A stretch of DNA of 64,000 bases from a phage: the sequence record OZ346167.1; one strand, written 5' to 3'. Positions within the stretch are counted from its first letter, which is position 1. The number at the start of each line of letters is the position of its first letter. Of the stretch, positions 10,466 to 47,880 are shown piece by piece. Made by a program: the position numbers and the translations under genes. The notes beneath the pieces were generated by a model that saw only the letters and a program-made list of their open reading frames with translations, was not told where the DNA came from and ran no database searches.

Positions 10466-10736
10466 TACATCTGGTCAATACACTCGCAAGGTGTACCAGT
10501 TCTCTTATGAACTTCTCCGCATTTCTACGGAGTGTCGGACTATATCACGTAGTAGTAATACTACCGTTGCACTTGGGAATGGTCATTGGCTTACCACCCT
10601 ACTCTACTCAGTTCATACGTTAAGTATGCTTTTCGATAGTCTCTGAACGTTCCTCTTAAGAGGCTTCGCTGCTGATTACCATATCTTTACAGACTTAGGC
10701 TTCCAGCAATTCACAACGTTTTACATGCGCCACTGA
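10466..10736 (-). mobile_element. Group I intron (ORF-less, about 270 nt) splitting the DNA polymerase gene inside motif B; boundaries approximate
   Basis: stops in all frames; transcribed strand carries Q/R/S-like core elements AATCAGCAGC, GTTCAGAGACTA, GATATAGTCC. Confidence 0.7.
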
Positions 10737-12908
10737 CGCATAAATGCCATTTTTGGCTTTCTTACGACCTTTTGTAATCTCGTGGAGAAGTTCCTCATCC
10801 TGTGTCTCCCTACAACGAACAATATCTTCTTCCTTGTTCAGACCAAAGTAAATACTGTTCAGTGTATGCGCATCAGTCCCTGTGTAGACTTCATAGAGGT
10901 CGTTCTCAGCATCATAACGAAGATACTTGTCAGTTTCTGGATTAAGGTGCTTATCAAGATGTTTGCAATAATATCTCCCATCTTCTTGCTTGGTAAATTC
11001 TACTGACTCTTTACCTTCAGTTACTGCTTTAGTGAACTCTTTATCACCCATAAAGTTACACAGTAAAACAAGCTGTGCAGAGTTCTGGTCAACAGAAACA
11101 ATGTTAGTCCCCTCTTCACAAATCCACACTGCCCTCATAGGTGCTCCATAGACAGCAGCACCAGACGGTACGTTTACAATACCATATTGTGTCATACGTC
11201 CAGTTGAAGTACCAAACACCATTGCACCAGCACTAAGGCGACCATCAGGACGAATCTGGTTCAACCAACCTTTTTCATCATCCTTTGAGTTCTCAATAGT
11301 TCTGCGTCGGTGCATCAAAGTATAGTACTTAGCAATCTTCTGTCCAAGCTCACCTTCAATCGTATCATAAGATGATTCAGTAAGTTTTGGTGAAGTACGG
11401 ATTAAGCAAGGCTCAAGCAAGTCTGTGTATTTCTTCACAGACCAGTTATGCTCAATGTACTGTACACCTTCATGTTCAACATAACTCAAACCACACCGCT
11501 CAACCATTTCCTGCCACTTAGGATGCTTTGTAATCATCTTTTTATTGTCTTTGAAACGACAAACTTTGACAGGGCGACCATCTGAGTCTTTCTTGTAATT
11601 CCAGTCATCTGGAATCCAACCAACTGATTTCAAGTAGTCTTTAACAACTGCTACCTGAGTCATACGAGAAACTTCAAACTCAATTGGTGTATATGGTGCA
11701 TCAATCAAACCTGTGTAGCGACTTGACTCAAGTTCAAAGTGATTAACAACGTGGCTGTTATAGTACTTCACAGTTTTGACTGTTTTTACTGGCTTCCAGT
11801 CTTTGCATTTCTTACCAATCTTTGCGTTCAACTCATTGCAAATTGCACGAGCATCCTTCATTGCTACAAATCCCTCTTTGTACTCTTCACCAGTTACAGA
11901 GTTGGTTGGTGTATAGCAATTTCTCTTTTCAATGTTAAAAATCTTTGTAGTTGGCTTACCAAATGGCTTGATTTCATATGTCTGCATCTCACCGTTACGT
12001 ACCTGCTGACGATACTTTGTCTTAGGGTACTTGGTAATCCTCTTCAGCCCATCTGCATGACCGAATGCTTCAACATATTCATTCCAAGCTTTTGCAAACT
12101 CTTCTCCAGTAACTTTACCTTTGGTCTTAATAGTTGGAGGAAGATGTGGTTCAACCTCTGAAGCAAGCTCATTAGTCAACTTGTCAAGTTCCTTTACATG
12201 GAACTCCATAAGCTCTTTATCAGCTTTCCAACCATTGATAGCTTGCTGGCTCATCCAGAAAGATGTTTCTTTAGCTCGCATGTAGGTTTCATAAGTGTCT
12301 ATGCCACACTTCTTAAGCTTGAGATACTCGTTATCAAGTGCCCGTTTAGTTTTGGCGTTAATACGGATATCTTCTACGACACGAGTGAAGATTTCTGCAT
12401 TCCACACACCCCAATGCTCAATCTCTGGCTTACGAACACCAACACGAGCACCCCATGCAGCCAAACCATGAGCACCTTTATAACCCTTTGGAGTTGGCCT
12501 ATCCATCCACTGAACACGAGACTGGATAAGAGAATCCTGAAAGAAATTACCCCACGGCTTACATTTTGGATTATCAAAGTTCCATAAATCAGGTGCAATG
12601 TGATTGAAAACCCACCAGTCATAACCGAGACCATTATGGATGCAAAGACGTTTTGCCTTTAACGCAAATTCAACACCTTCACGTAAACCACCTTTGATGT
12701 ACTTAGTGTACTTGTGACCGAGGATAGGCTCATCTGTAAAGACCCATACAGGTGGCTCTTCATCGTCAGATTTATAGTCTGCAAAGGCCATTACGTGAAC
12801 TTTAGTGAACTCAAGGAGTAAACCATCAGTTTCTGTATCACCAACCAAATGTAAGTTTTTAAAATCTACGTTTTCCATTTTTACTCCCTCTAAAATCATT
12901 AACCTCAT
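10695..12908 (-). CDS. DNA polymerase (family A) with 3'-5' exonuclease domain, 5' exon (ORF runs into the intron; true exon probably ends near 10737)
   Basis: exonuclease motif VGDTETDG near N-terminus; ends ...RKKAKNGIYA at start of motif B. Confidence 0.85.
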   Translation of the reverse strand: MRLMILEGVKMENVDFKNLHLVGDTETDGLLLEFTKVHVMAFADYKSDDEEPPVWVFTDEPILGHKYTKYIKGGLREGVEFALKAKRLCIHNGLGYDWWVFNHIAPDLWNFDNPKCKPWGNFFQDSLIQSRVQWMDRPTPKGYKGAHGLAAWGARVGVRKPEIEHWGVWNAEIFTRVVEDIRINAKTKRALDNEYLKLKKCGIDTYETYMRAKETSFWMSQQAINGWKADKELMEFHVKELDKLTNELASEVEPHLPPTIKTKGKVTGEEFAKAWNEYVEAFGHADGLKRITKYPKTKYRQQVRNGEMQTYEIKPFGKPTTKIFNIEKRNCYTPTNSVTGEEYKEGFVAMKDARAICNELNAKIGKKCKDWKPVKTVKTVKYYNSHVVNHFELESSRYTGLIDAPYTPIEFEVSRMTQVAVVKDYLKSVGWIPDDWNYKKDSDGRPVKVCRFKDNKKMITKHPKWQEMVERCGLSYVEHEGVQYIEHNWSVKKYTDLLEPCLIRTSPKLTESSYDTIEGELGQKIAKYYTLMHRRRTIENSKDDEKGWLNQIRPDGRLSAGAMVFGTSTGRMTQYGIVNVPSGAAVYGAPMRAVWICEEGTNIVSVDQNSAQLVLLCNFMGDKEFTKAVTEGKESVEFTKQEDGRYYCKHLDKHLNPETDKYLRYDAENDLYEVYTGTDAHTLNSIYFGLNKEEDIVRCRETQDEELLHEITKGRKKAKNGIYASVAHVKRCELLEA

Positions 12909-32952: not shown

Positions 32953-33834
32953 ATGAAAACATCTATCCGTGTTACAATTCATTCACCAACTAAAGGAACT
33001 CATGAAGAAGAGTTTAACATCATTCAATTCCCTTCTGGTGAGATTGGTGGACACTTTTCACAAGAGCTAGTTGATTTTACTGCTTATGCAGCATCCTCCA
33101 TTAACAATGTGGTTATGATTGTAAAAGGCTACGACAAGGACACATTGTTTGCTGTGGCACTTGCTAAAGAAGCAATTGATGATTTGATTCCTCATGATTA
33201 TGCCTTAAAGACTGTCATCTTTTACTACTTACCAAATGCACGATATGACCGTCACATGTTTAAAGGTGATGCAGCAGCTTTGAAGGTTTTTGCTAAACAG
33301 GTTAATGCAATGGGGTTTGGTGCAGTCTGTGCAGTTGACCCTCACAGCTATGTACCAGATAACCTGTTTAACTGCTTCCAGAGTATTCCTCAAAAGGAGA
33401 TTGCAGTCCACTATGCAAATGACCCACTGGTTGATTACTTAGTAGCCCCAGATGCAGGTGCTGCTAAGAAGGTTGCAGAGACCGCTAAAGAGGTGGATAA
33501 ACCATATATCACAATGTCTAAGGTGCGTAACCTTAAGACTGGTGAAATTACTGGTATGCGAATCCTTGATGATGTTGATTTGACAGATAAAACCGTCATG
33601 ATTCTGGATGATATCTGTGATGGTGGTCGAACCTTCATAGAAGCAGCTAAGCATCTTCGTGAAGCAGGTGCAAAACGTGTGGAACTTTATGTAACACATG
33701 GTATCTTCTCTAAAGATGTTGAAAACCTTCTTGACAATGGTATCGACCATATTTACACTACAAACTCTTTAGGCGAAGCTAAAGACCGTGGCTTAACACA
33801 TTATGGTCAAGTTACTGTAGCAAACCTTGATTGA
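32953..33834 (+). CDS. Ribose-phosphate pyrophosphokinase (Prs) homolog; candidate ADP-ribose pyrophosphokinase of a NARP1-type NAD+ reconstitution pathway
   Basis: phosphoribosyltransferase-type binding loop VMILDDICDGGRT; immediately upstream of NAMPT homolog. Confidence 0.7.
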   Translation: MKTSIRVTIHSPTKGTHEEEFNIIQFPSGEIGGHFSQELVDFTAYAASSINNVVMIVKGYDKDTLFAVALAKEAIDDLIPHDYALKTVIFYYLPNARYDRHMFKGDAAALKVFAKQVNAMGFGAVCAVDPHSYVPDNLFNCFQSIPQKEIAVHYANDPLVDYLVAPDAGAAKKVAETAKEVDKPYITMSKVRNLKTGEITGMRILDDVDLTDKTVMILDDICDGGRTFIEAAKHLREAGAKRVELYVTHGIFSKDVENLLDNGIDHIYTTNSLGEAKDRGLTHYGQVTVANLD

Positions 33835-33938
33835 AAGTTTATAGGGGCTTGAAAGCCCCATTTTGAGAGAGATTAAAAGATGACTAAATCACTTTATGCA
33901 GTACCAGCAGGTTTAAACGCAGATGCTTACAATATCTT

Positions 33939-35291
33939 ATGTTGAACCTGACACCACGTAGTGACAAATGGTTTAACAGCCCTTTGGCAATTGACGGTGT
34001 AGTGGCTTTTGGTATTCAACGTTTCGTTAAAGATTACTTGATAGACCATTGGAACGCCACTTTCTTTGAACGTGACAAAAAAGAAGCAATTGACGAAATC
34101 TTAGAAGTCATGAACGGCGTTATGGGTAAAGATGCTATTGGTCGAGAGCATTGGGAAGCACTTCACGACTTAGGTTATCTACCAGTTGAAGTATACGCTG
34201 TAGAAGAAGGCACAGTTGTCCCGATGCGTGTCCCAATGATTGTCTTCCAGAACACTGTTTCAGGTTTCCATTGGGTAGCAGGTTATCTGGAAGATGCTTT
34301 CTCTGCTGAGATTTGGAAGGCTTGCACCATTGCAACTATTGCATTGCATTATAAACGCATCTGTAAGAAGTGGGCTGACCTTACTTGTGACAACGACTTA
34401 CATTTACCTTATCAGTGTCATGACTTTGCTATGCGTGGTATGTCAGGCTTTACTGATGACGCATTTAACGCTGTAGGTCACTTAACCAGCTTTAAAGGAA
34501 CTGATAGCTTCCCTACTGTGTATACGGCTAAACGAATCTATGGACAGTCCTACCCAATCTCTGATATTGGTAGCTCTGTACCAGCCACTGAACACTCTGT
34601 AATGTGTGCAAACATTGCTTGGGAAGGTGGTAATGAATTGATTGAAGAAGAAAGACGCTTTAAAGGTGAGTTACAAACCTTCCGTCGCTTCTTAACAGAA
34701 ACTTACCCAACTGGTATTGCAAGTATTGTTTCAGATACTTATAACTTCTGGAGAACTGTGTCAGAAATCTTACCAGCACTCCGTAAAGAGATTATGGAAC
34801 GTGATGGCAAACTGGTAATTCGGCCTGACTCTGGAGACCCTGTACATATTGTCACAGGATATAAAGCAATCCACTTAGAGTGTGCTAAGAAGGCTTATTA
34901 CGAACACTTAAGCAAGCTTGAAGCCAGCGACACAATGTTGAATGCTGTTCTGAACATGAAGCTTGAAAACATCAATTATGGTATTGCTGGATGGCTACTG
35001 TCAGAAGGCTACGAAATGGTTGTTGACAGAGAAGACTTTGAAGTTGCTGATACAGTGCTGTTGAAAAACGCTTATATGGTTGGTTCTGCAAACGTTGTAA
35101 CACGTCCTGTAGCTGAGATTGATGGAGCTATTAAGACACTGTACAACATCTTTGGGGCTTTGTATCTCACCTTGATGTTGAAATTGATGAAGAAGGTTAC
35201 ATCATTGGTTGGAAGAAAGTATCTACTCGTGAAGGCAAGCTGGTTGACTCCCACACCTACAGAGTACCTAATGATTTGGGTAACATTGTAG
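33939..35291 (+). CDS. Nicotinamide phosphoribosyltransferase (NAMPT/NadV) homolog; candidate NARP1 Namat; both ends uncertain
   Basis: NAMPT blocks HDFAMRGMSGF, HLTSFKGTDS, SVPATEHS, VSDTYN, IRPDSGDP; C-terminal 45 aa look non-native. Confidence 0.7.
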   Translation: MLNLTPRSDKWFNSPLAIDGVVAFGIQRFVKDYLIDHWNATFFERDKKEAIDEILEVMNGVMGKDAIGREHWEALHDLGYLPVEVYAVEEGTVVPMRVPMIVFQNTVSGFHWVAGYLEDAFSAEIWKACTIATIALHYKRICKKWADLTCDNDLHLPYQCHDFAMRGMSGFTDDAFNAVGHLTSFKGTDSFPTVYTAKRIYGQSYPISDIGSSVPATEHSVMCANIAWEGGNELIEEERRFKGELQTFRRFLTETYPTGIASIVSDTYNFWRTVSEILPALRKEIMERDGKLVIRPDSGDPVHIVTGYKAIHLECAKKAYYEHLSKLEASDTMLNAVLNMKLENINYGIAGWLLSEGYEMVVDREDFEVADTVLLKNAYMVGSANVVTRPVAEIDGAIKTLYNIFGALYLTLMLKLMKKVTSLVGRKYLLVKASWLTPTPTEYLMIWVTL

Positions 35292-35602
35292 AAATGCCAC
35301 GTTGGATGGTTGATAATAACCGTAACGTGACTTGCTCTCAAGGTCTTCATGTTGGTGCTTGGGATTATGTTCGTTGCTTCTCAGGTGATACAATTCTGAA
35401 GGTTCGTGTCCATCCACGAGACGTTGTATCCGTACCAACTGATTACAACGATATGAAGATGCGCTCGTCTCGTTATGAAGTTGCAGCAATCGTTGATAAT
35501 CAACGTAAAGTGCTGAAAGCATGGGATGGCAAGACTGAAGCTTTGCATGTCATCGTTGGCACTGCTGGGGAACTCATCTCTCAGCGTAAACGTGAAATCT
35601 AA
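35276..35602 (+). CDS. Hypothetical protein, or C-terminal continuation of the NAMPT homolog in an alternate frame (frame opens at 35135 without ATG)
   Basis: 108-aa ORF overlapping NAMPT 3' end; protein-like sequence precedes its first ATG. Confidence 0.4.
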   Translation: MGNIVEMPRWMVDNNRNVTCSQGLHVGAWDYVRCFSGDTILKVRVHPRDVVSVPTDYNDMKMRSSRYEVAAIVDNQRKVLKAWDGKTEALHVIVGTAGELISQRKREI

Positions 35603-35616
35603 TAAGTAATTTCTTA

Positions 35617-35646
35617 AAAGGCTGCTTCGGCGGCCTTTTTTATTTG
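35617..35646 (+). terminator. Rho-independent terminator
   Basis: GGCTGCTTCGGCGGCC + TTTTTTATTT. Confidence 0.6.
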
Positions 35647-35702
35647 TATTTTGTGCAGAGTACTGTATAATTGTTGTCACGATAAACTAAACAGGAGAAC
35701 CA

Positions 35703-36251
35703 ATGAAGAAATTGATTCTAGGTTTGTGCTTAATGTTTACAGCACACTTAGCTTATGCAGTTGACTGCCCAGAGCTATCAATTAGCCAAAAAGTAAACAT
35801 GTTAAAAGCTTACCAGTATGGTGAGAATAACATGGGTAAAGGTTGGGGTATCACTCTAGCTGCTATAGCCTTACAAGAGTCAGAGTTAGGTCTGAAGGTA
35901 GAGAATAAAAAGACACACGATTATGGTATTTTCCAGAATCACTTGAAGACTGTTGTAAAGCGTAACAAAATTAGTCCTAATGTGGCTAAAAAGAAACTCT
36001 TAAAAGACTTTGACTATGCTGCAAAGGAAACGCACAAAGAACTTGAGTTTTGGACAAAGGTGCATGGTCAGCCAAAGTCAAAGAAGACTTTACAAAAAGT
36101 TTTAGCATCATATAATGCTGGGTATTCGTACAGAATCCCTAAAGCTAAGAAGTATTCTCAAGATGTCTATAACAACATGAAAGTTATTGCCCAATGTGAA
36201 TTTGCAACAAACATTTCTAAGGTAAACCATGAAAAAATTAAGAAAGTCTGA
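35703..36251 (+). CDS. Secreted lytic transglycosylase-like protein
   Basis: signal peptide MKKLILGLCLMFTAHLAYA; catalytic-region-like ALQESELG...YGIFQ. Confidence 0.5.
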   Translation: MKKLILGLCLMFTAHLAYAVDCPELSISQKVNMLKAYQYGENNMGKGWGITLAAIALQESELGLKVENKKTHDYGIFQNHLKTVVKRNKISPNVAKKKLLKDFDYAAKETHKELEFWTKVHGQPKSKKTLQKVLASYNAGYSYRIPKAKKYSQDVYNNMKVIAQCEFATNISKVNHEKIKKV

Positions 36252-40707: not shown

Positions 40708-40913
40708 TGCTTTACAGTCGTGAATTGATGGTTACAACTAACGTTAACACAAAGGTAAAACGTTTTTACATGCAAATTTGTGGCGTATGGTCTAGAATAT
40801 CAGAGGCTGACTATTGCAACTATGTAGAAACAGCTATAAACTCTAATTGCTATCTTACAAGAAATACAAGAAAGTACATAAGACAGACAGCAATTTACTA
40901 CTACGATAAATAA
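40707..40913 (+). CDS. Early small protein
   Basis: ATG overlapping upstream stop (TAATG). Confidence 0.5.
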   Translation: MLYSRELMVTTNVNTKVKRFYMQICGVWSRISEADYCNYVETAINSNCYLTRNTRKYIRQTAIYYYDK

Positions 40914-40999
40914 AGTACTTTACAAGGGGCTTATAGTTCGATAAAGTAAGCCCCAGATAAAGAGCTTTACCACTAAATCCTAAACTGGAGAACTTAAAA
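40914..40999 (+). promoter_or_regulatory. Type-1 intergenic element: hairpin GGGGCTTA..TAAGCCCC + conserved leader AGATAAAGAGCTTTACCACTAAATCCTAAACTGGAGA
   Basis: reiterated at 41384, 41762, 42362, 43435, 44226; stem shows compensatory changes. Confidence 0.6.
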
Positions 41000-41380
41000 A
41001 TGGCATACCGCGCACCGAAATTCATCAATAAAGAAAATTTTCGTAATGTATTAGAGAAGGCGCTTGATGAAAAATTTAACGGCAAAATAATTGTTGTTCA
41101 CTCGTTCAATTTCAAGTATGATATCAACGGGAATAAAATCAACCATTACACGGCAACCATGTTAGATGGCAATCTTTCAAGTGAAAAAGCCGTACTGAAT
41201 GCACTTGCTGGACGTGGAAAAAATCTGATAAGATGTGATAAGAGACGTTATCAGGGCGGCGCATATGGTTATGATGATGCTATCTATCATCTTGAAAATA
41301 TGGGCTATCAAGTAGAAAAAGCTGGAGTATCACAAATCATCGGGAGCGATGGTTATGTAACAATCTTCAAAATTAACTGA
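41000..41380 (+). CDS. Early small protein
   Basis: 126-aa ORF behind type-1 element. Confidence 0.55.
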   Translation: MAYRAPKFINKENFRNVLEKALDEKFNGKIIVVHSFNFKYDINGNKINHYTATMLDGNLSSEKAVLNALAGRGKNLIRCDKRRYQGGAYGYDDAIYHLENMGYQVEKAGVSQIIGSDGYVTIFKIN

Positions 41381-41383
41381 TAA

Positions 41384-41469
41384 AGTACTTTACAAGGGGC
41401 TTATAGTTCGATAAAGTAAGCCCCAGATAAAGAGCTTTAACACTAAAATCCTAAATTGGAGATTCTAAA
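41384..41469 (+). promoter_or_regulatory. Type-1 intergenic hairpin/leader element
   Basis: same sequence family as 40914..40999. Confidence 0.6.
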
Positions 41470-41763
41470 ATGGCTATTATCAGAAACGTTGTAATTACTG
41501 CAAAGACTCGTGATGACGCTCGCGCTATGGCTAAAAAGTTATGCGGGAAAGTGGTTGACAACGGAAAACAATCTGCTGTAAGATGGGGCGTAAAGGTTGA
41601 TAAACATTTGAAGTTAAAAAATTCACCGATAAACCTTTTTACATGTGTAAACACTATCGGGAAGACAAATGTATACACGAAAAAGGCATATATTAGACGC
41701 GTAGCATTAACATCCCCCATTCGTACAATGAGAAGTTATGCAAAGCTAAAAATTAACAAATAA
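41470..41763 (+). CDS. Early small basic protein
   Basis: 97-aa ORF. Confidence 0.55.
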   Translation: MAIIRNVVITAKTRDDARAMAKKLCGKVVDNGKQSAVRWGVKVDKHLKLKNSPINLFTCVNTIGKTNVYTKKAYIRRVALTSPIRTMRSYAKLKINK

Positions 41764-41848
41764 AGTACTTTACAAGGGGCTTAAAAGCTGGTATCTTAAG
41801 CCCCAGATAAAGAGCTTTACCACTAAATCCTAAACTGGAGATTCCAAA
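41762..41848 (+). promoter_or_regulatory. Type-1 intergenic hairpin/leader element (loop variant)
   Basis: GGGGCTTAAAAGCTGGTATCTTAAGCCCC. Confidence 0.6.
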
Positions 41849-42361
41849 ATGAAAACTGTAGACGCTACCTTTGAAGTTGTAAAAGAAAAATTCACCATTA
41901 TTTATGAAGCTGTTAATTGCTACGAAGCAAGCCATAATCTTGATAATTGGAAGTTTACAGATGACCATCAAGGCGGCGTGACTATTAAAAACCCTAACTG
42001 TCAGCGTAACGATTTTAAATATGCAATCCCTTTAAATTATAGCCTTAAACAGCTTTCTAGTGACTATGCAAAACAAGGCCGGGAAAACCCATCAAAAGAG
42101 GCTTACACCAGCTTACAGAAAGAACTAGAAAGAGATTTAGAGGCTTCAGAATACAACCTTGCCGCGAAAGTTATCGATGCAAATGGCAACACGGTTTTAG
42201 AGAGTTTTTATCTAGGATATGCCTTTGATTGGTGCTATAGTGACGGCGATGATTTAGATGACAGACTAAAAGAGGAAGTGAACAATTCAGACGCAGAATC
42301 TGAAGTATTAGAACGTCTGGAATCATTAAAAGACTCAGTGATGAATATCTTTAAGAACTAA
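41849..42361 (+). CDS. Early protein
   Basis: 170-aa ORF. Confidence 0.55.
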   Translation: MKTVDATFEVVKEKFTIIYEAVNCYEASHNLDNWKFTDDHQGGVTIKNPNCQRNDFKYAIPLNYSLKQLSSDYAKQGRENPSKEAYTSLQKELERDLEASEYNLAAKVIDANGNTVLESFYLGYAFDWCYSDGDDLDDRLKEEVNNSDAESEVLERLESLKDSVMNIFKN

Positions 42362-42448
42362 GTAGATTTCTTTACACGGGGCTATCAAGCTGATAAGATA
42401 GCCCCAGATAAAGAGCTTTACCACTAAATCCTAAACTGGAGATTCAAA
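42362..42448 (+). promoter_or_regulatory. Type-1 intergenic hairpin/leader element (compensatory stem variant GGGGCTAT..ATAGCCCC)
   Basis: covarying stem with conserved flanks. Confidence 0.6.
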
Positions 42449-42745
42449 ATGAAATTATCAAATAAAGTCCGTGAAAATCTAAGCAAGTTACTCAACAAAA
42501 TTGATTTTATCGAGACATCAAGGAATAGCCACGATGTTATGGAATGGTTACACGGAAAAATTAAAGGCCGTCGTGTAGTGATTTGCTTATGGAATAGTTG
42601 CAGGGAGTATAAAAAACCTGTATTGCAAGTCAATATTTATGATGATACTTTTAAAAGTCCAGTAAAGTCTAAAAGTGATTTATTAGAATCCTATGAGATA
42701 GCTGTAAGTGGCAAAGTATCACGTAAAGAGGAATCACCATGCTAA
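42449..42745 (+). CDS. Early small protein
   Basis: 98-aa ORF. Confidence 0.55.
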   Translation: MKLSNKVRENLSKLLNKIDFIETSRNSHDVMEWLHGKIKGRRVVICLWNSCREYKKPVLQVNIYDDTFKSPVKSKSDLLESYEIAVSGKVSRKEESPC

Positions 42746-43071
42746 TGACTGGCATCACTGCAATTATAGCCATTTTCGCGCTCTATAAGGCATATAAAGC
42801 CTATAATCTAGCAAATAAGGCAATCACACAGCAGGTTAGCAACAGCCTTGTAGAGAGCTTTCTAGAGCGTTTGAGTGATGAACAATTAAAACGGTTAGAA
42901 ATGAGCTTCAGATTTCAATCAAAAACTTATCAAATCAGCGACATTTTCAAAGATGATTTTCAGCTAGTCGATGATTATAATGCTCTGATAAATGCTTTAA
43001 ATATCAGTGACTTAAAAGACTATTACGCTGTAATTGTTCAAGAATTAAGCAAACGAAAACAAAACTGTTGA
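42739..43071 (+). CDS. Early small membrane protein
   Basis: N-terminal TMD ITAIIAIFALY. Confidence 0.5.
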   Translation: MLMTGITAIIAIFALYKAYKAYNLANKAITQQVSNSLVESFLERLSDEQLKRLEMSFRFQSKTYQISDIFKDDFQLVDDYNALINALNISDLKDYYAVIVQELSKRKQNC

Positions 43072-43161
43072 CACTGATTTCTAGATAGATTAAATTACAC
43101 ATCAACGGCGAGGGAATGAACTTCCCCACTAAGTAAAGTCCTTAAACTAGGAGATTCAAAA
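43068..43161 (+). promoter_or_regulatory. Type-2 element: TTGACA-N17-TAAATT promoter + leader hairpin
   Basis: -35 overlaps upstream stop codon. Confidence 0.6.
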
Positions 43162-43434
43162 ATGTATACTACTAACAACGGTCGCACTTTGAACGTAACC
43201 CTGCACCACTATGTGAACGGTGTAATGCACTTCGAGGATTTACAAGCCGAACAACATATCTTAGATTGGCAACTTGCAGGACTCCAAAAAACTGCTACCG
43301 GATACGGGAAAAAGATTCCAACTAGCTGGAAAGTATACTACGAAGGACGTTTGCGCAGAATTTATCAGGATGTATATAGCAATAGCACAACAAGTTACAT
43401 CATGGTAAAAGGTAAAAAATTACACTTAGTATAA
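43162..43434 (+). CDS. Early small protein
   Basis: 90-aa ORF. Confidence 0.55.
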   Translation: MYTTNNGRTLNVTLHHYVNGVMHFEDLQAEQHILDWQLAGLQKTATGYGKKIPTSWKVYYEGRLRRIYQDVYSNSTTSYIMVKGKKLHLV

Positions 43435-43519
43435 AGTACTTTACAAGGGGCTTATAGTTCGATAAAGTAAGCCCCAGATAAAGAGCTTTATCACTCAATC
43501 CTAAATTGGAGATTCTAAA
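43435..43519 (+). promoter_or_regulatory. Type-1 intergenic hairpin/leader element
   Basis: same family. Confidence 0.6.
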
Positions 43520-43924
43520 ATGGCTATTAATAATCGTGAGTTATCAATCTTAAAAGCACGTTTGACCGTTAACCGGATTAATGTTATTACGTCATCAGCG
43601 CCTGATGAAACATTGCACAACATTATCGGAAAGATTCAAAGCGTTATCTTAGACGTTGAAAACGTAAAAAGTTCATTGGCTGACGTTGCAGCAGGTATCA
43701 CGCTAGACGGTGCGCAATATGAAATGGCTGACATGTTAGGCAAATCGAAGGTAATGAATAAAGAGCTTGATTTAAAAATGTTTCGATTTGCCGTGAAAGT
43801 ATGGTTATCTGTCGAGTATGACGCTAATTTTGCAATCGCTGATTTCTTTGCCACTTGGTTACAACGTAATTTGACAAATCATGATTTTCGTGGTGTCTGT
43901 GATGCAATTTATGCAGAACTCTAA
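43520..43924 (+). CDS. Early protein
   Basis: 134-aa ORF. Confidence 0.55.
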   Translation: MAINNRELSILKARLTVNRINVITSSAPDETLHNIIGKIQSVILDVENVKSSLADVAAGITLDGAQYEMADMLGKSKVMNKELDLKMFRFAVKVWLSVEYDANFAIADFFATWLQRNLTNHDFRGVCDAIYAEL

Positions 43925-43933
43925 AAAATTTTG

Positions 43934-44024
43934 TTGACACTGGTTTTTAGATAGATTAAATTACACATCAACGGGAGGGAATGACCTTCCCCACTAAATA
44001 AAATCCTAAACTGGAGATTCTAAA
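43934..44024 (+). promoter_or_regulatory. Type-2 element: TTGACA-N17-TAAATT promoter + leader hairpin
   Basis: near-identical to 43068 element. Confidence 0.6.
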
Positions 44025-44228
44025 ATGGCTATTATTAACGGCTTACACATTGAAACAACTCACATCAAAGATATTAAAGTTGGTGATGTAGTCCTTTCCC
44101 ACGGCGTAGAAAAAACTGTCACTGCAAAGGATATCAAAGAGGATTCTTTCATGGGTAGGACTCTCTTCGGTGATTCTTATTGCTTAGGGTATCTTGCAGT
44201 CTTAAAAGTTGTCAAAAATAACAAATAA
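44025..44228 (+). CDS. Early small protein
   Basis: 67-aa ORF. Confidence 0.5.
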   Translation: MAIINGLHIETTHIKDIKVGDVVLSHGVEKTVTAKDIKEDSFMGRTLFGDSYCLGYLAVLKVVKNNK

Positions 44229-44316
44229 AGTACTTTACAAGGGGCTTATAGTTCGATAAAGTAAGCCCCAGATAAAGAGCTTTACCACTAAATCCTTAAA
44301 CTAGGAGATTCAAAAA
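44226..44316 (+). promoter_or_regulatory. Type-1 intergenic hairpin/leader element
   Basis: same family. Confidence 0.6.
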
Positions 44317-44883
44317 ATGAAATGCTATCACGGCACTACTCTGAAAAACTTTGTAAACCTGCTTAAAGGTGGCAACAAGCCGGAAGGTATCTGGAACTGC
44401 TCTTACATGGATGATTGTTTTTACGTTTACCCGATGGATAAGATTATCAAGACGGAATGTCTGGAAGATGAAGAAGCTTCTTACATCCGTGAACGCTGCA
44501 TTCAAAACGCTTTAGAGTCGGGGCTTATTACGGCAGCTTTCCAAATGGAAACGCAGGAAGTGATTGTAATTGAGATGGATATCCCAGAGGAAGAACTTGA
44601 GGACGATTATTCTTGTGACAACATGAGCGAAATCGCCAGCTTTACCGGTTACTTTGATAAAGATTGGATTATTGGTATTCACTCAACGAAATTTAGTGCA
44701 ATGTATGCGCCATTCTTTGTACCTGATACAACTAACCGCAATTTGGGCTATATTGACGATGATTTGTTGAGTATTGCAAAAATTGTACAGGATAGCGGTG
44801 ATACTTCTTCTGTGTTTTGTGACCTGCTGGATAAAATTACCGAGAATCTCACAGAGCGCAATCTAAGCGACTTTTTAGACTAA
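44317..44883 (+). CDS. Early acidic protein
   Basis: 188-aa ORF. Confidence 0.55.
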   Translation: MKCYHGTTLKNFVNLLKGGNKPEGIWNCSYMDDCFYVYPMDKIIKTECLEDEEASYIRERCIQNALESGLITAAFQMETQEVIVIEMDIPEEELEDDYSCDNMSEIASFTGYFDKDWIIGIHSTKFSAMYAPFFVPDTTNRNLGYIDDDLLSIAKIVQDSGDTSSVFCDLLDKITENLTERNLSDFLD

Positions 44884-44946
44884 GCAGTACAAAGACACTA
44901 ATTTCCAACTTAAGGCCCATACAGGGCCATTTAAAGGGCTTAAATC

Positions 44947-45180
44947 ATGCTTACAACCGTTTACCTCATCCTTTCCATCTGTAATGGTCATTCATGCGAT
45001 TTTAAAGGGCTTGAAGAGTTTACAGGAAGTAAAGAAAATGCTATTCAAGTTTGCCAGATAGCACGGCAAGACTATCCCGCAAGTGATGATATACAATGCT
45101 ACTTTAAGACAGAAGATGAAGACGGCATCTATTTTGACAGCGTTGACGGTCAATATGAAATTATCATTGAAAAAGACTAG
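44947..45180 (+). CDS. Early small protein
   Basis: 77-aa ORF preceded by GGCCC..GGGCC hairpin. Confidence 0.5.
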   Translation: MLTTVYLILSICNGHSCDFKGLEEFTGSKENAIQVCQIARQDYPASDDIQCYFKTEDEDGIYFDSVDGQYEIIIEKD

Positions 45181-45271
45181 ACAAGCCTGATAAAAGTCTG
45201 TAAATTGTCAATCAACGGGGAGGGAATGACCTTCCCCACTAAATAAAGTCCTTAAACTAGGAGATTCTAAA
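45178..45271 (+). promoter_or_regulatory. Type-2 element: TAGACA-N17-TAAATT promoter + leader hairpin
   Basis: same family. Confidence 0.55.
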
Positions 45272-45613
45272 ATGGCTTATGTAACTGTAATTACCGATAA
45301 AGAAGATTCATCTTGGTCAACTCAAGTAAGTGATAAGATGTCACCTATGCAGTGCCTAAAATACTTTGAGCAGTGGAACAAAGGCGAGGATGTCAGCCCC
45401 TTTCAAGTGATGCAGATTATTCATGTAGACAATGAAGGGAAGAAAACGACTCTGAACAGTGAGTACTATGCGAGCCGCTTCGAAACGAGAAGTAAAACAA
45501 TGAAGCTTCTACGTGAATCCGGTTATTCTCATATTGCCGCGCTAATCTGGGATGACCTGCTAAAAAACCAACGTATCAGCTACGTAAAACCTGAAAAAAT
45601 ATTCATCAGTTAA
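45272..45613 (+). CDS. Early protein
   Basis: 113-aa ORF. Confidence 0.55.
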   Translation: MAYVTVITDKEDSSWSTQVSDKMSPMQCLKYFEQWNKGEDVSPFQVMQIIHVDNEGKKTTLNSEYYASRFETRSKTMKLLRESGYSHIAALIWDDLLKNQRISYVKPEKIFIS

Positions 45614-45645
45614 TCAATAACTTACAAAAAACTTTTTAAAAAGTA

Positions 45646-45833
45646 TTGACAATACCCCTTGACATTGGTAAATTTGTTCGAGGGGGTTTATCTAAAAGGG
45701 ATTCACTTAAAAGATTCTTTATAGATAAGCTTAAAAAATTGCTTGCAATCAGCTATCAAAACAAGTAAATTACTAATCAACGGGGAGGCAATAACATCCC
45801 CACTAAATAAAATCCTAAACTGGAGATTCTAAA
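45646..45833 (+). promoter_or_regulatory. Tandem early promoters (TTGACA-N17-TAAATT; TTGCAA-N17-TAAATT) + leader hairpin GGGGAGGCAATAACATCCCC
   Basis: same family; hairpin stem variant. Confidence 0.55.
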
Positions 45834-46364
45834 ATGAACAAATTTCAAGCTATCAACCACATTCGTTCAAATAGTGTCATGTCTAAGCCTGTAAAAGACA
45901 CATACGAATTTCGCTGCAATGGTGTACACTTTGCAACCATCACCAAATCAGAAAACGGGGCTTATTATATCCATCGCCGTAATGTTTCGACCGTTGTAGT
46001 CTCTCACTTTATGCAAGCTGTAGCGGAATTATTGCCGTTATTCTTAGAGATTTATCTAGATGAGTGTAAAAACGTTCACAACCACGTTAAAAACCTTTTA
46101 AACGGTTATAAAATGGCTTATGAACGTTCTATCAAGTCGCTAAACAAGTTCTATAAAGCCCCTGAAAATACTGTATCAATAGCTTATGATGTAAGCGGTG
46201 AAATGGTCAACCTCTCCAATGTAGAACAAATTGGCCTTTATGACTCACGTCCTAGCGGTTACTCTAAGACACTGGGAGAAGGATTATCTTTCAATATCAA
46301 GAACTTAGAAAAAACTTTAAAAGATATTGAAAAAGACATTGACGAGACAATCAAAAATCTGTAA
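45834..46364 (+). CDS. Early protein
   Basis: 176-aa ORF. Confidence 0.55.
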   Translation: MNKFQAINHIRSNSVMSKPVKDTYEFRCNGVHFATITKSENGAYYIHRRNVSTVVVSHFMQAVAELLPLFLEIYLDECKNVHNHVKNLLNGYKMAYERSIKSLNKFYKAPENTVSIAYDVSGEMVNLSNVEQIGLYDSRPSGYSKTLGEGLSFNIKNLEKTLKDIEKDIDETIKNL

Positions 46365-46432
46365 ATTGTCAATCAACGGGGAGGGAATGACCCTCCCCAC
46401 TAAATAAAGTCCTTAAACTAGGAGATTCAAAA
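46339..46432 (+). promoter_or_regulatory. Type-2 element: TTGACG-N17-TAAATT promoter + leader hairpin
   Basis: same family. Confidence 0.55.
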
Positions 46433-46681
46433 ATGGCTACTATCCGCGCAACTGTTAACGAATTTGGCTTCTACTCTCTGGACGTTAAATTTGACCTTGT
46501 AGGTACTGATAACGCCTTTGAAATGGTGAAAGGCCTTATCAGCCAGACCATCAGTGACTACAACCCCTCTGATGAATTCTGGAAAGAAACAAAACAAGAA
46601 GCCCTTAAAGATGGTTACACTTATCACTATTGGGGCGAAAAAATTGTCTCCCTGTACTACGACAAAGAAGGCACTAACTAA
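46433..46681 (+). CDS. Early small protein
   Basis: 82-aa ORF; last gene of cassette. Confidence 0.55.
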   Translation: MATIRATVNEFGFYSLDVKFDLVGTDNAFEMVKGLISQTISDYNPSDEFWKETKQEALKDGYTYHYWGEKIVSLYYDKEGTN

Positions 46682-47040: not shown

Positions 47041-47244
47041 TTATAAAATAGGACTGTCAAGTTATTTTTTAGGGTCTTTGAAGGAACTCAAAAATATCTG
47101 TAGAAGATGTATATCTGCTTGGTAGCCCTTAACAATCCCTTACAAGTACTTTGCAAAATTTTAAAATATCCTTAACAATCTCTTAACAGTTCTCACATCT
47201 TCTTAACAACTCTTCAAAGGTCTTAACAGATTCTTAACAAACCC
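47041..47244. repeat. Left arm of ~204-bp inverted repeat
   Basis: reverse complement of 47677..47880 with about 2 differences. Confidence 0.8.
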
Positions 47245-47676
47245 TACATAGTTATGCTTGTTAGCCCCTTGTTAAATCTCTGTTAAGACCATGTAAAAGC
47301 CTTGTAAGAGCCTTTGACATAGCCTTAAAAGCTCCTGTAAAGCCCTATAAAGAGCTTTCTGTATAGTTGGGGTGTAACTACTAGGAAGAGACTTAAAAGA
47401 GCTTATAAAGAGCTATAGAGAGCTTTTAAGAGGTATGTTTAAAGAATCACTAAGAGGGAAAGGGAACTATAGACCAAGAGATAGTGACCATGTTAATAGC
47501 TTGTTAAAAAGATTAAACACTTGTTAGGAATTTGTTAATTATCTTAATTGGTATTGTTACCAATCCCTACAAAATAATCCTTTAAAATTAACTTGTTAGC
47601 TCTTGTTAGCAATCTGTTAAGATTCTGTAAAGTCTATGTAGCACTTGTTAGAGATTTGTTACACCCTTGTTAGTTC

Positions 47677-47880
47677 TGTTAAGAATCTGTTAAGACCTTT
47701 GAAGAGTTGTTAAGAAGATGTGAGAACTGTTAAGAGATTGTTAAGGATATTTTAAAATTTTGCAAAGTACTTGTAAGGGAGTTGTTAAGGGCTACCAAGC
47801 AGATATACATCTTCTACAGATATTTTTGAGTTCCTTCAAAGACCCTAAAAAATGACTTGACAGTCCTATTTTATAAAAAT
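47677..47880. repeat. Right arm of ~204-bp inverted repeat
   Basis: reverse complement of 47041..47244. Confidence 0.8.

Follow-up and report, generated by a model that had tools for sequence, protein, structure and literature searches.

The closest described counterpart of the locus discussed here is found in the phage Bas63 (JohannRWettstein), in which genes 79 and 80, encoding Adps and Namat, were shown by experiment to make up NARP1 (10.1101/2024.02.11.579819). Bas63 remains viable when genes 79-80 are missing; in the mutant concerned, the deletion begins at codon 28 of gene 79 and ends at codon 302 of gene 80 (10.1101/2024.02.11.579819). For the Namat of SpbetaL1, a structure is available, in which the ligand contacts include Asp13'/Tyr15', Gly360-Asp361-Ala362, Gly390-Ser391-Phe392, Tyr396, and Thr398'-Arg399'-Asp400', with the Asp13'/Tyr15' motif forming part of the partner protomer's nicotinamide pocket (PMC12774641). 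Regarding the rII genes, knocking them down in SUSP1, a Felix O1-like phage, does no harm on hosts devoid of RexAB.

The stretch of DNA analysed here (the window; 64,000 nucleotides of the phage record OZ346167.1) is a Felixounavirus (Felix O1-like) genome; all coding features and signals given below are located on its plus strand. It is collinear with the genome of phage CRP22 apart from one gap of 4,153 nt, corresponding to CRP22 positions 70240-74392. In approximately 260 relatives, Namat is a single open reading frame (ORF) of 593 codons, whose start is the ATG corresponding to window position 33880; in their annotation, one Namat/NAMPT coding sequence of 1,782 nt precedes small genes, rIIA, and rIIB. 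The gene order in all relatives examined is Adps, Namat (593 codons), one to three small genes, rIIA, and rIIB. The two-frame layout of the window is a departure from an arrangement that is conserved in all related genomes examined, and the odd layout at both ends of Namat is not a product of chance. The first NARP1 gene, Adps (annotated as ribose-phosphate pyrophosphokinase/Prs; 32953..33834), is intact, comprises 293 codons, and matches the Pfam families PF00156 and PF14572. An identical Adps protein is encoded by phage MN850603 and by a Logan contig, both of which contain a full Namat of 593 amino acids, while its identity to Bas63 gene 79 is only 77.5%, identifying the window as a different phage. 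We propose that two deletions, one of 37 nt and one of 4,153 nt, have left a dead Namat remnant that runs out of frame into the 3' part of rIIB, and we put the probability of this reading at slightly below nine in ten.

At the 5' end of Namat, the ancestral translation signals are retained. The Shine-Dalgarno sequence GAGAGAGA (33864..33871) is positioned 8 nt 5' of the ATG at 33880 and is identical in phage heid, where it precedes the annotated Namat start. This ATG opens a 21-codon stub (33880..33945; MTKSLYAVPAGLNADAYNILC, followed by the stop codon), which, according to the alignment with heid, is composed of Namat codons 1-17, four out-of-frame codons (NILC), and TGA; its residues 1-17 match Bas63 gene 80 at 100% identity. 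Compared with the relatives, the window shows a gap after position 33932 (junction 33930..33933), at which Namat codons 18-30 and one further nucleotide are lost. The missing 37 nt are present in 234 out of 234 matching phage records, with 81 nt of the query corresponding to 118 nt of the record. This loss shifts the frame, resulting in both the 21-codon stub and the apparent start at 33939. The TGA of the stub (33943-33945) follows 1 nt past the ATG at 33939, creating the sequence ATGTTGA; in the relatives, this ATG encodes the internal Met33, and the TGA is not read in frame. The bases preceding 33939 (...GCTTACAATATCTT) are devoid of a purine-rich Shine-Dalgarno sequence. An earlier examination of the letters alone (the sequence-only reading) had described this end correctly, i.e., an ATG at 33880 with a ribosome-binding site, a 21-codon frame whose stop overlaps the 33939 start as ATGTTGA, and the lack of a Shine-Dalgarno sequence at that start. 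The 37-nt deletion is flanked by a 3-nt repeat at most, CAA at 33930-33932 being the kept copy of a possible repeat that is found in one allele type only; a mechanism is not evident from the sequence.

The 3' end of Namat is defined by a second and much larger lesion. Comparison with heid, CRP22, and Bas63 places the junction of the 4,153-nt deletion in a 19-nt repeat copy, CTGTACAACATCTTTGGGG (35139..35157), with the crossover falling inside the exact 8-mer CTTTGGGG (35150-35157). Before the deletion, the two copies would have read CTGTAcAACAtCTTTGGGG in Namat and CTGTAgAACAaCTTTGGGG in rIIB, matching at 17 of 19 bases, eight of which form the exact match. Among 1.93 million Namat x rIIB position pairs, this is the sole direct repeat with at least 17 of 19 matching bases, and no other one of this quality is present in the whole interval. 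The sequence across the junction in the window is AACATCTTTGGGGNTTNGTATCTCACC; Namat homology stops at 35157, and rIIB homology runs from 35133. Immediately to its right, GGGGCTTTGTA constitutes a native synonymous rIIB allele that is found in a Felixounavirus of IMG/VR; nothing has been inserted. The junction, hence, has the characteristics of a short-repeat deletion, with both flanks collinear with intact relatives, no insertion, and one repeat copy kept. The sequence lost in this way comprises codons 439-593 of Namat, one or two small genes, the entire rIIA gene, and the first 219 codons of rIIB. The stretch lost from the window is matched by 258 records, while the 35150-35157 junction is spanned by none of 293, and the exact junction patterns gave no match in IMG/VR, JGI metagenomes, or GTDB genomes. 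The possibility that the lost segment had moved to another place in the window was considered and rejected, since only two short matches to it, of 34 and 64 nt, were found in the 64 kb; approximately 20 kb of the genome lie beyond the window. A literature search yielded no description of a Namat-rII deletion in Felix O1-like phages. The sequence-only reading had offered four explanations for the irregular frames, of which a sequencing indel near 35130-35170 came closest; its scale and place were wrong, however, as the sequence lost amounts to 37 nt at 33932/33933 and 4,153 nt at 35150-35157.

The sequence downstream of the junction is accounted for by rIIB in two different frames. The frame starting at 33939 terminates at the TAG at 35289-35291, and its final 44 codons read ALYLTLMLKLMKKVTSLVGRKYLLVKASWLTPTPTEYLMIWVTL. 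Translation and alignment identify this "low-complexity tail" (35158..35291; 44 codons and TAG) as rIIB sequence read out of frame, which explains the hydrophobic, low-complexity end that had been noticed in the NAMPT frame; a stop at 35291 is not conserved in orthologs, since it is not present in that context in the relatives. The second frame opens at 35135, following a stop at 35132-35134, and ends with the TAA at 35600-35602. The suspicion that it encodes real protein was justified: it contains the C-terminal 150 codons of rIIB, i.e., codons 220-369 and the stop (35150..35602). At least 233 records with an annotated rIIB match the window from 35133 on, the translation agrees with the C-terminus of heid rIIB upon comparison by eye, and the identity to Bas63 gene 85 is 72.5%. 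The remnant gives no Pfam match, while PF26926 is recognized in full-length relatives. Its own start codon, ribosome-binding site, and promoter are lacking; the first NTG codon is a TTG at 35276, where an ATG had previously been reported, and the first in-frame ATG is located at 35294. With codons 220-369 alone left, there is no full-length rIIB ORF with its own start. After rIIB, a hairpin with a T-run resembling an intrinsic terminator (35616..35639), recognized from the sequence, marks the end of the ancestral rII operon.

The Namat remnant itself is an open frame of codons 33-438 (33939..35157), from which the N- and C-terminal active-site segments are gone, as seen from the alignment with Bas63 gene 80 and from PF04095, of which only profile positions 1-132 of 239 are matched. 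Its orthology to a characterised Namat is clear: 400 of 406 residues (98.5%) are identical to residues 33-438 of Bas63 gene 80, and it lies directly 3' of the intact Adps. By alignment, the ligand-contact residues known from SpbetaL1 fall into segments that are either missing or separated in the window. The N-terminal Asp-x-Tyr motif is no longer contiguous with the catalytic body; Asp15 and Tyr17 are found in the 21-codon stub only, with the frame shift occurring right after Tyr17. Likewise, the C-terminal ribose-phosphate/AMP segments G-D-(A/S), G-S-(F/Y), Tyr, and T-R-D are absent, given that the Namat sequence ends at codon 438 and that the corresponding segments of heid and Bas63 (IYGDSIT, GVGSYTYQYMTRD) map past residue 438. 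Window Namat would, thus, be a pseudogene rather than a working enzyme. With respect to its age, 37-60 synonymous and 5-6 nonsynonymous codon differences separate the remnant from its relatives, comparable to the differences among the relatives themselves, and only two amino-acid states are found in the window alone. This normal pattern of purifying selection, together with the two unique residues only, indicates that decay has not begun and that the lesions in Namat are recent.

The borders of both deletions, the repeat, the uniqueness of the arrangement, and the loss of the active-site segments are directly observed, and the following history may be proposed. In one lesion, 37 nt would have been lost after Namat codon 17, upon which translation from 33880 ends after 21 codons. 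In the other one, 4,153 nt would have been lost between short direct repeats, joining Namat codon 438 out of frame to rIIB codon 220, presumably through replication slippage or microhomology-mediated illegitimate recombination. As a consequence, functional Namat, and with it NAD+ reconstitution by NARP1, would have been lost along with rIIA and rIIB, and the phage would be expected to remain viable without these two dispensable counter-defence functions on hosts that lack the matching defences. Two independent lesions in one gene are somewhat unusual for a fresh mutant; they are to be expected in a gene that a first lesion has already inactivated.

The most serious alternative, though an unlikely one, is that the phage possesses an intact Namat-rIIA-rIIB region and that the gaps arose during sequencing, assembly, finishing, or library preparation, or that a minority deletion variant was taken as the consensus. 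In line with this, neither junction was found in any other record or collection searched, and look-ups of the exact proteins of the fused ORF, the rIIB remnant ORF, and the downstream gene revealed no independent assembly of the window genome. Furthermore, Felixounavirus records are conventionally opened just 5' of rIIA, so that the region is often handled manually. On the other hand, no direct repeat in the interval is better than the one at the junction (17/19), of which only eight bases are exact. Eight exact bases are too short for a misjoin by assemblers of either the de Bruijn or the overlap type, and re-opening a record by hand would not lead to the 17/19 repeat. A clean loss of 37 nt is untypical of base-calling errors, and the flanks of both gaps are otherwise normal and collinear with the relatives. 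A junction created by gluing the record ends was also considered and rejected; its borders lie inside Namat and rIIB on a unique repeat, the usual opening is 5' of rIIA, and the terminal repeats of CRP22 map to window positions 47221-47796. The repeat at the junction, therefore, favours a real deletion in the phage DNA over an assembly product.

Much less probable is the notion that the combined loss is adaptive. This could be the case if a single event eliminating both counter-defence modules (Namat of NARP1, and rIIA/rIIB) had been selected owing to a host defence that senses one of the lost proteins, if a shorter genome were favoured, or if a Namat fragment, reinitiated at ATGTTGA, bound nicotinamide or acted in a dominant-negative manner beside the intact Adps.

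Still more doubtful is termination-reinitiation at ATGTTGA, by which a Namat fragment of new function (residues 33-438 with the 44-residue tail) would be made; the rIIB tail would then be a separate gene with a TTG start. Coupled gene pairs do show the arrangement seen for the stop at 33943-45 and the ATG at 33939, and the 406-codon remnant is still open; however, the ATGTTGA arrangement was made by the deletion and is missing from all relatives. No Shine-Dalgarno sequence precedes 33939, 35276, or 35294, and promoter-like matches in the region are at chance level (8 found versus 7.5 expected). The substitution pattern of the remnant reflects its ancestry only and not a new constraint, and the fragment lacks the residues needed for catalysis at the dimer interface. 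Accordingly, neither translational coupling nor a separate overlapping gene with a non-canonical start, both of which had been suggested, finds support, given that the 33939 ATG is internal in the orthologs, that the second frame is an rIIB remnant, and that the layout is absent from the orthologs.

Programmed -1 frameshifting, which would join the stub to the 33939 frame and Namat to the rIIB frame to yield a functional fusion protein, is scarcely credible: while the frame changes at both ends are in the -1 direction and an in-phase heptamer, U_UUA_AAC (33911-33917), is present within the 21-codon ORF, this heptamer represents ordinary Gly-Leu-Asn codons that are conserved in orthologs needing no frameshift (a single 1,782-nt ORF), the RNA fold of 33918-33995 is not significant (-15.9 kcal/mol, z = -1.25; 24 of 200 shuffles fold equally well or better), a slip at this site would swap the Asp15/Tyr17 motif for unrelated residues, no canonical heptamer was seen at the 3' junction when the sequence was read by eye, a Namat(1-438)-rIIB(220-369) fusion would still be without the C-terminal catalytic segments, and the two-frame layout is shared by no relative (37 nt in 234/234, junction in 0/293).

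The double-deletion reading matters chiefly for annotation. The 450-codon "NAMPT" and the downstream ORF should be labelled as a Namat pseudogene and an rIIB fragment, respectively, and not as genes or as a case of recoding or overlap. The window would represent a natural-looking Felix O1-like phage without rIIA/rIIB and without the Namat step of NARP1, but with Adps retained. Sensitivity to NAD+-depleting defences (e.g., SIR2-HerA) and to RexAB-type exclusion is predicted for such a phage, which bears on host-range prediction or therapeutic use of the isolate. The Namat-rII remnant has an ordinary explanation and holds no surprise for specialists; its Namat-rIIB junction provides a tidy case of a deletion at the best available short repeat.

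Among known systems, programmed -1 sites (X_XXY_YYZ with a structure) resemble the window in that an in-phase U_UUA_AAC lies 5' of a -1 frame change; they differ from it in that the window has no significant downstream structure, its layout is not conserved, and its product would be non-functional. T4 rII deletion mutants are similar in that a spontaneous-looking deletion abolishes rII and fuses neighbouring genes, and rII is dispensable in the absence of RexAB. The T4 deletion r1589, for instance, reportedly fuses rIIA to rIIB. In contrast, the window deletion begins in Namat, takes all of rIIA, and creates an out-of-frame fusion, and the phage belongs to the Ounavirinae and not to the T-even phages. 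With the Bas63 NARP1 pair, the window genes share the genus, the Pfam families, and the position of Namat (gene 80) right after the Prs-like Adps (gene 79). Unlike Bas63 Namat, however, window Namat lacks codons 18-30 and 439-593, its frame is broken, the Asp/Tyr nicotinamide-stacking motif is cut off, and the GDS, GSY, and TRD segments are gone. A further parallel is the Bas63 delta 79-80 mutant, an escaper from Cas13a counter-selection, which is likewise a viable Felixounavirus that has lost NARP1 via a ragged, non-designed internal deletion; the borders of that deletion are different, and in the window Adps has stayed intact.

The region 33700–35900 of the window matches about 260 Felixounavirus (Felix O1-like, Ounavirinae) genomes with 90–97% identity by megablast; query coverage is at most 66% in every record, and the match always ends at 35157 and contains an internal gap. 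In the six relatives compared (heid, HY02, CRP22, MN850603, the Logan contig SRR11355462_191 and Bas63), Namat, a NAMPT-type nicotinamide ADPR-transferase, is a single CDS of 1,782 nt (593 codons) that starts at the equivalent of ATG 33880. It is located directly downstream of the Prs-like gene (Adps); one to three small genes come next, then rIIA (788 codons) and rIIB (368–369 codons). Ortholog comparison, which the sequence-only reading had named as its refuting test, found this single CDS and no relative sharing the two-frame layout. The feature is a mutation scar, that is, a Namat pseudogene fused to a fragment of rIIB in a different frame.

At the 5′ end, the ATG at 33880 is preceded by GAGAGAGA at 33864–33871 and opens a 21-codon ORF (MTKSLYAVPAGLNADAYNILC, then stop), whose TGA (33943–33945) lies just past ATG 33939, forming ATGTTGA, while ATG 33939 has no purine-rich sequence on its upstream side; in all of this, the earlier description was accurate. 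Alignment with heid reveals that 37 nt are missing right after 33932. The lost block comprises codons 18–30 plus one base and, therefore, shifts the frame, with the 21-codon stub consisting of Namat codons 1–17, four wrong codons and the stop. ATG 33939 is the ancestral internal Met33 (context YLM(F/L)NLTPR). In the MN850603 allele type, the deleted block has CAA on each side, at best a 3-nt repeat. An 81-nt query across this junction matches 234 records and, among the matches listed, spans 118 nt in two pieces; hence, the 37 nt are present there.

At the 3′ end, the frame from 33939 runs for 450 codons to TAG 35289–35291, and its final 44 codons do read as hydrophobic, nonsense-like text; this “low-complexity tail” is rIIB DNA translated in the Namat frame. 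Namat homology stops at 35157 (codon 438 plus 1 nt), and from 35133 on the homology is to the 3′ portion of rIIB and to the genes that follow, namely a putative lysin, polynucleotide kinase and spanins. Relative to heid as well as CRP22, the window lacks exactly 4,153 nt (CRP22 70240–74392), comprising Namat codons 439–593, the small genes, the whole of rIIA and rIIB codons 1–219; this segment was not found elsewhere in the 64-kb window. The second frame, open from 35135 and ending at 35602, does encode a plausible protein, namely rIIB codons 220–369, and its translation agrees with the heid rIIB C-terminus when compared by eye. Its first ATG is at 35294, as position 35276, previously given for it, is a TTG. 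Of the earlier suggestions, only that of an indel pointed in the right direction, with the actual lesions being deletions of 37 nt and 4,153 nt.

Intact relatives read ACACTGTACAACATCTTTGGGG|GAAC at the Namat-side border and TTCTGTAGAACAACTTTGGGG|(A/C)TT(C/T)GTATCTC at the rIIB-side border, and the window reads CTGTACAACATCTTTGGGGCTTTGTATCTC over the junction. The two bases just right of the junction that are unlike heid and CRP22, both synonymous in the rIIB frame, are native to the intact rIIB of IMG/VR contig UViG_3300045988_004167; they represent a native rIIB allele, so the junction carries no inserted bases, and the crossover falls inside the exact 8-mer CTTTGGGG (35150–35157). When every heid Namat position was scanned against every heid rIIB position, only the junction repeat reached 17/19 out of 1.93 million position pairs, and across the whole Namat-to-rIIB interval no other direct repeat attains 17/19 at a spacing of at least 300 nt. 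Such exact placement of a deletion on the best short repeat available is what slippage or microhomology-mediated recombination characteristically leaves. At 35135–35158, the Namat-derived bases encode DTVQHLWG in the rIIB frame versus native DSVEQLWG; the DNA repeat, therefore, also resembles a protein similarity, which is a coincidence.

An artefact of assembly or finishing could yield the same record, as could a minority variant, yet we consider this unlikely. A repeat of 8 nt exact and 17/19 overall is not long enough to misdirect an assembler, and arbitrary concatenation would not place the junction on the best short repeat. Records of Felix O1-type phages are conventionally opened upstream of rIIA; however, re-opening at that point would not produce breaks at a repeat within Namat and rIIB. 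Programmed −1 frameshifting would fit the frame changes, which are −1 at both ends, and an in-phase U_UUA_AAC heptamer at 33911–33917; however, this heptamer is ordinary, conserved Gly-Leu-Asn coding in orthologs needing no frameshift, the fold downstream is not significant (z = −1.25), neither the Asp/Tyr motif nor the C-terminal domain would be part of the shifted product, and no relative shares the layout, making this explanation extremely improbable. Translational coupling at ATGTTGA, or a new overlapping gene in the rIIB frame with a non-canonical start, is rejected, these being by-products of the deletions, with candidate starts without a preceding ribosome-binding site and promoter-like matches at chance level.

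The junction of the 4,153-nt deletion is spanned by none of 293 phage records, and the stretch deleted here is matched in 258 records; junction sequences were not found in IMG/VR, JGI metagenome contigs or GTDB genome contigs. Comparison of the window with five relatives across the Namat codons still present gives 37–60 synonymous and only 5–6 nonsynonymous codon differences, and the relatives diverge from each other in like manner; just two amino-acid states and 9 bases occur in the window alone. It follows that decay of the remnant has yet to set in and that the two lesions are very young in evolutionary terms.

In the Felixounavirus Bas63, genes 79–80, annotated Prs and Nampt, constitute the NARP1 pathway, in which Adps pyrophosphorylates ADP-ribose and Namat links ADPR-PP with nicotinamide to rebuild NAD+, countering NAD+-depleting defences such as SIR2-HerA (10.1101/2024.02.11.579819). 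Over residues 33–438, the window's Namat shares 98.5% identity with Bas63 gene 80, and residues 1–17 match it fully. The closest solved structures by sequence, PDB 9w5w and 9w5x, are taken to be the SpbetaL1 Namat, whose ligand contacts are Asp13′/Tyr15′ at the N-terminus as well as Gly360-Asp361-Ala362, Gly390-Ser391-Phe392, Tyr396 and Thr398′-Arg399′-Asp400′ (PMC12774641). In the alignment to these structures, the N-terminal contacts correspond to Felixounavirus Asp15 and Tyr17, stranded on the 21-residue stub, and the remaining contacts to the IYGDSIT and GVGSYTYQYMTRD segments beyond residue 438, which are deleted. Judged by homology, the remnant is incapable of enzymatic activity. The Adps gene is intact and encodes the same protein as in MN850603, a phage with full Namat. 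The phage should be able to do without Namat and rII functions: a mutant of Bas63 without genes 79–80 is viable (10.1101/2024.02.11.579819), and in the Felix O1-like phage SUSP1, rII knockdown is harmless unless RexAB is present. The Bas63 rII genes 84/85 have been described in connection with the QatABCD defence, which they are proposed to counter.

Several further features of the locus were observed. Namat residues ~344–427 (34909–35160), kept in the remnant, form an ~84-residue insertion versus the closest solved Namat/NAMPT structures, between the IRPDSGDPV and G-x-I-x-x-L-x-x-IFGG segments. Ancestry is mosaic at the Adps/Namat boundary, with Adps (32953–33834) 100% identical to MN850603 and 77.5% to Bas63, and the Namat remnant (33880–35157) 98.5% to Bas63; the rIIB remnant is 72.5% identical to Bas63 and, by eye, appears identical to heid. 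Only a 45-nt spacer separates Adps and Namat in the window (33835–33879), heid, HY02, CRP22 and Bas63, holding the hairpin GGGGCTTGAAAGCCCC followed by TTTT, while an HNH_3 endonuclease gene (163 aa) lies between them in MN850603 (L007 6891–7382) and Logan SRR11355462_191 (L008 6891–7382).

The rest of the window is collinear with CRP22 except for small mosaic differences usual for the genus. Both CRP22 record ends (16–590 and 86630–87193) match 47221–47796, probably the direct terminal repeat and, thus, the physical genome ends of these phages. An Rfam group I intron match (10515–10798, minus strand; 64.2 bits, E = 5.8e-14) coincides with ~270 nt (10466–10737) absent from CRP22 at a site within its DNA polymerase gene (gp_66); the polymerase gene of the present phage thus seems to contain a small intron that carries no endonuclease gene. 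Rfam also places 23 tRNA genes at 57425–63551 (plus strand), an array typical of Felix O1-like phages. Between small genes at ~40900–46440, elements of 55–100 nt recur in several copies (e.g., at 40908, 43431, 43965, 44212, 45211 and 46372), seen as several short matches to a single IMG/VR locus. Recurring promoter or terminator modules are one possible explanation.

The scar, a further example of a familiar type of event, matters mostly for correct annotation and for the prediction that two counter-defence functions are absent from this isolate.
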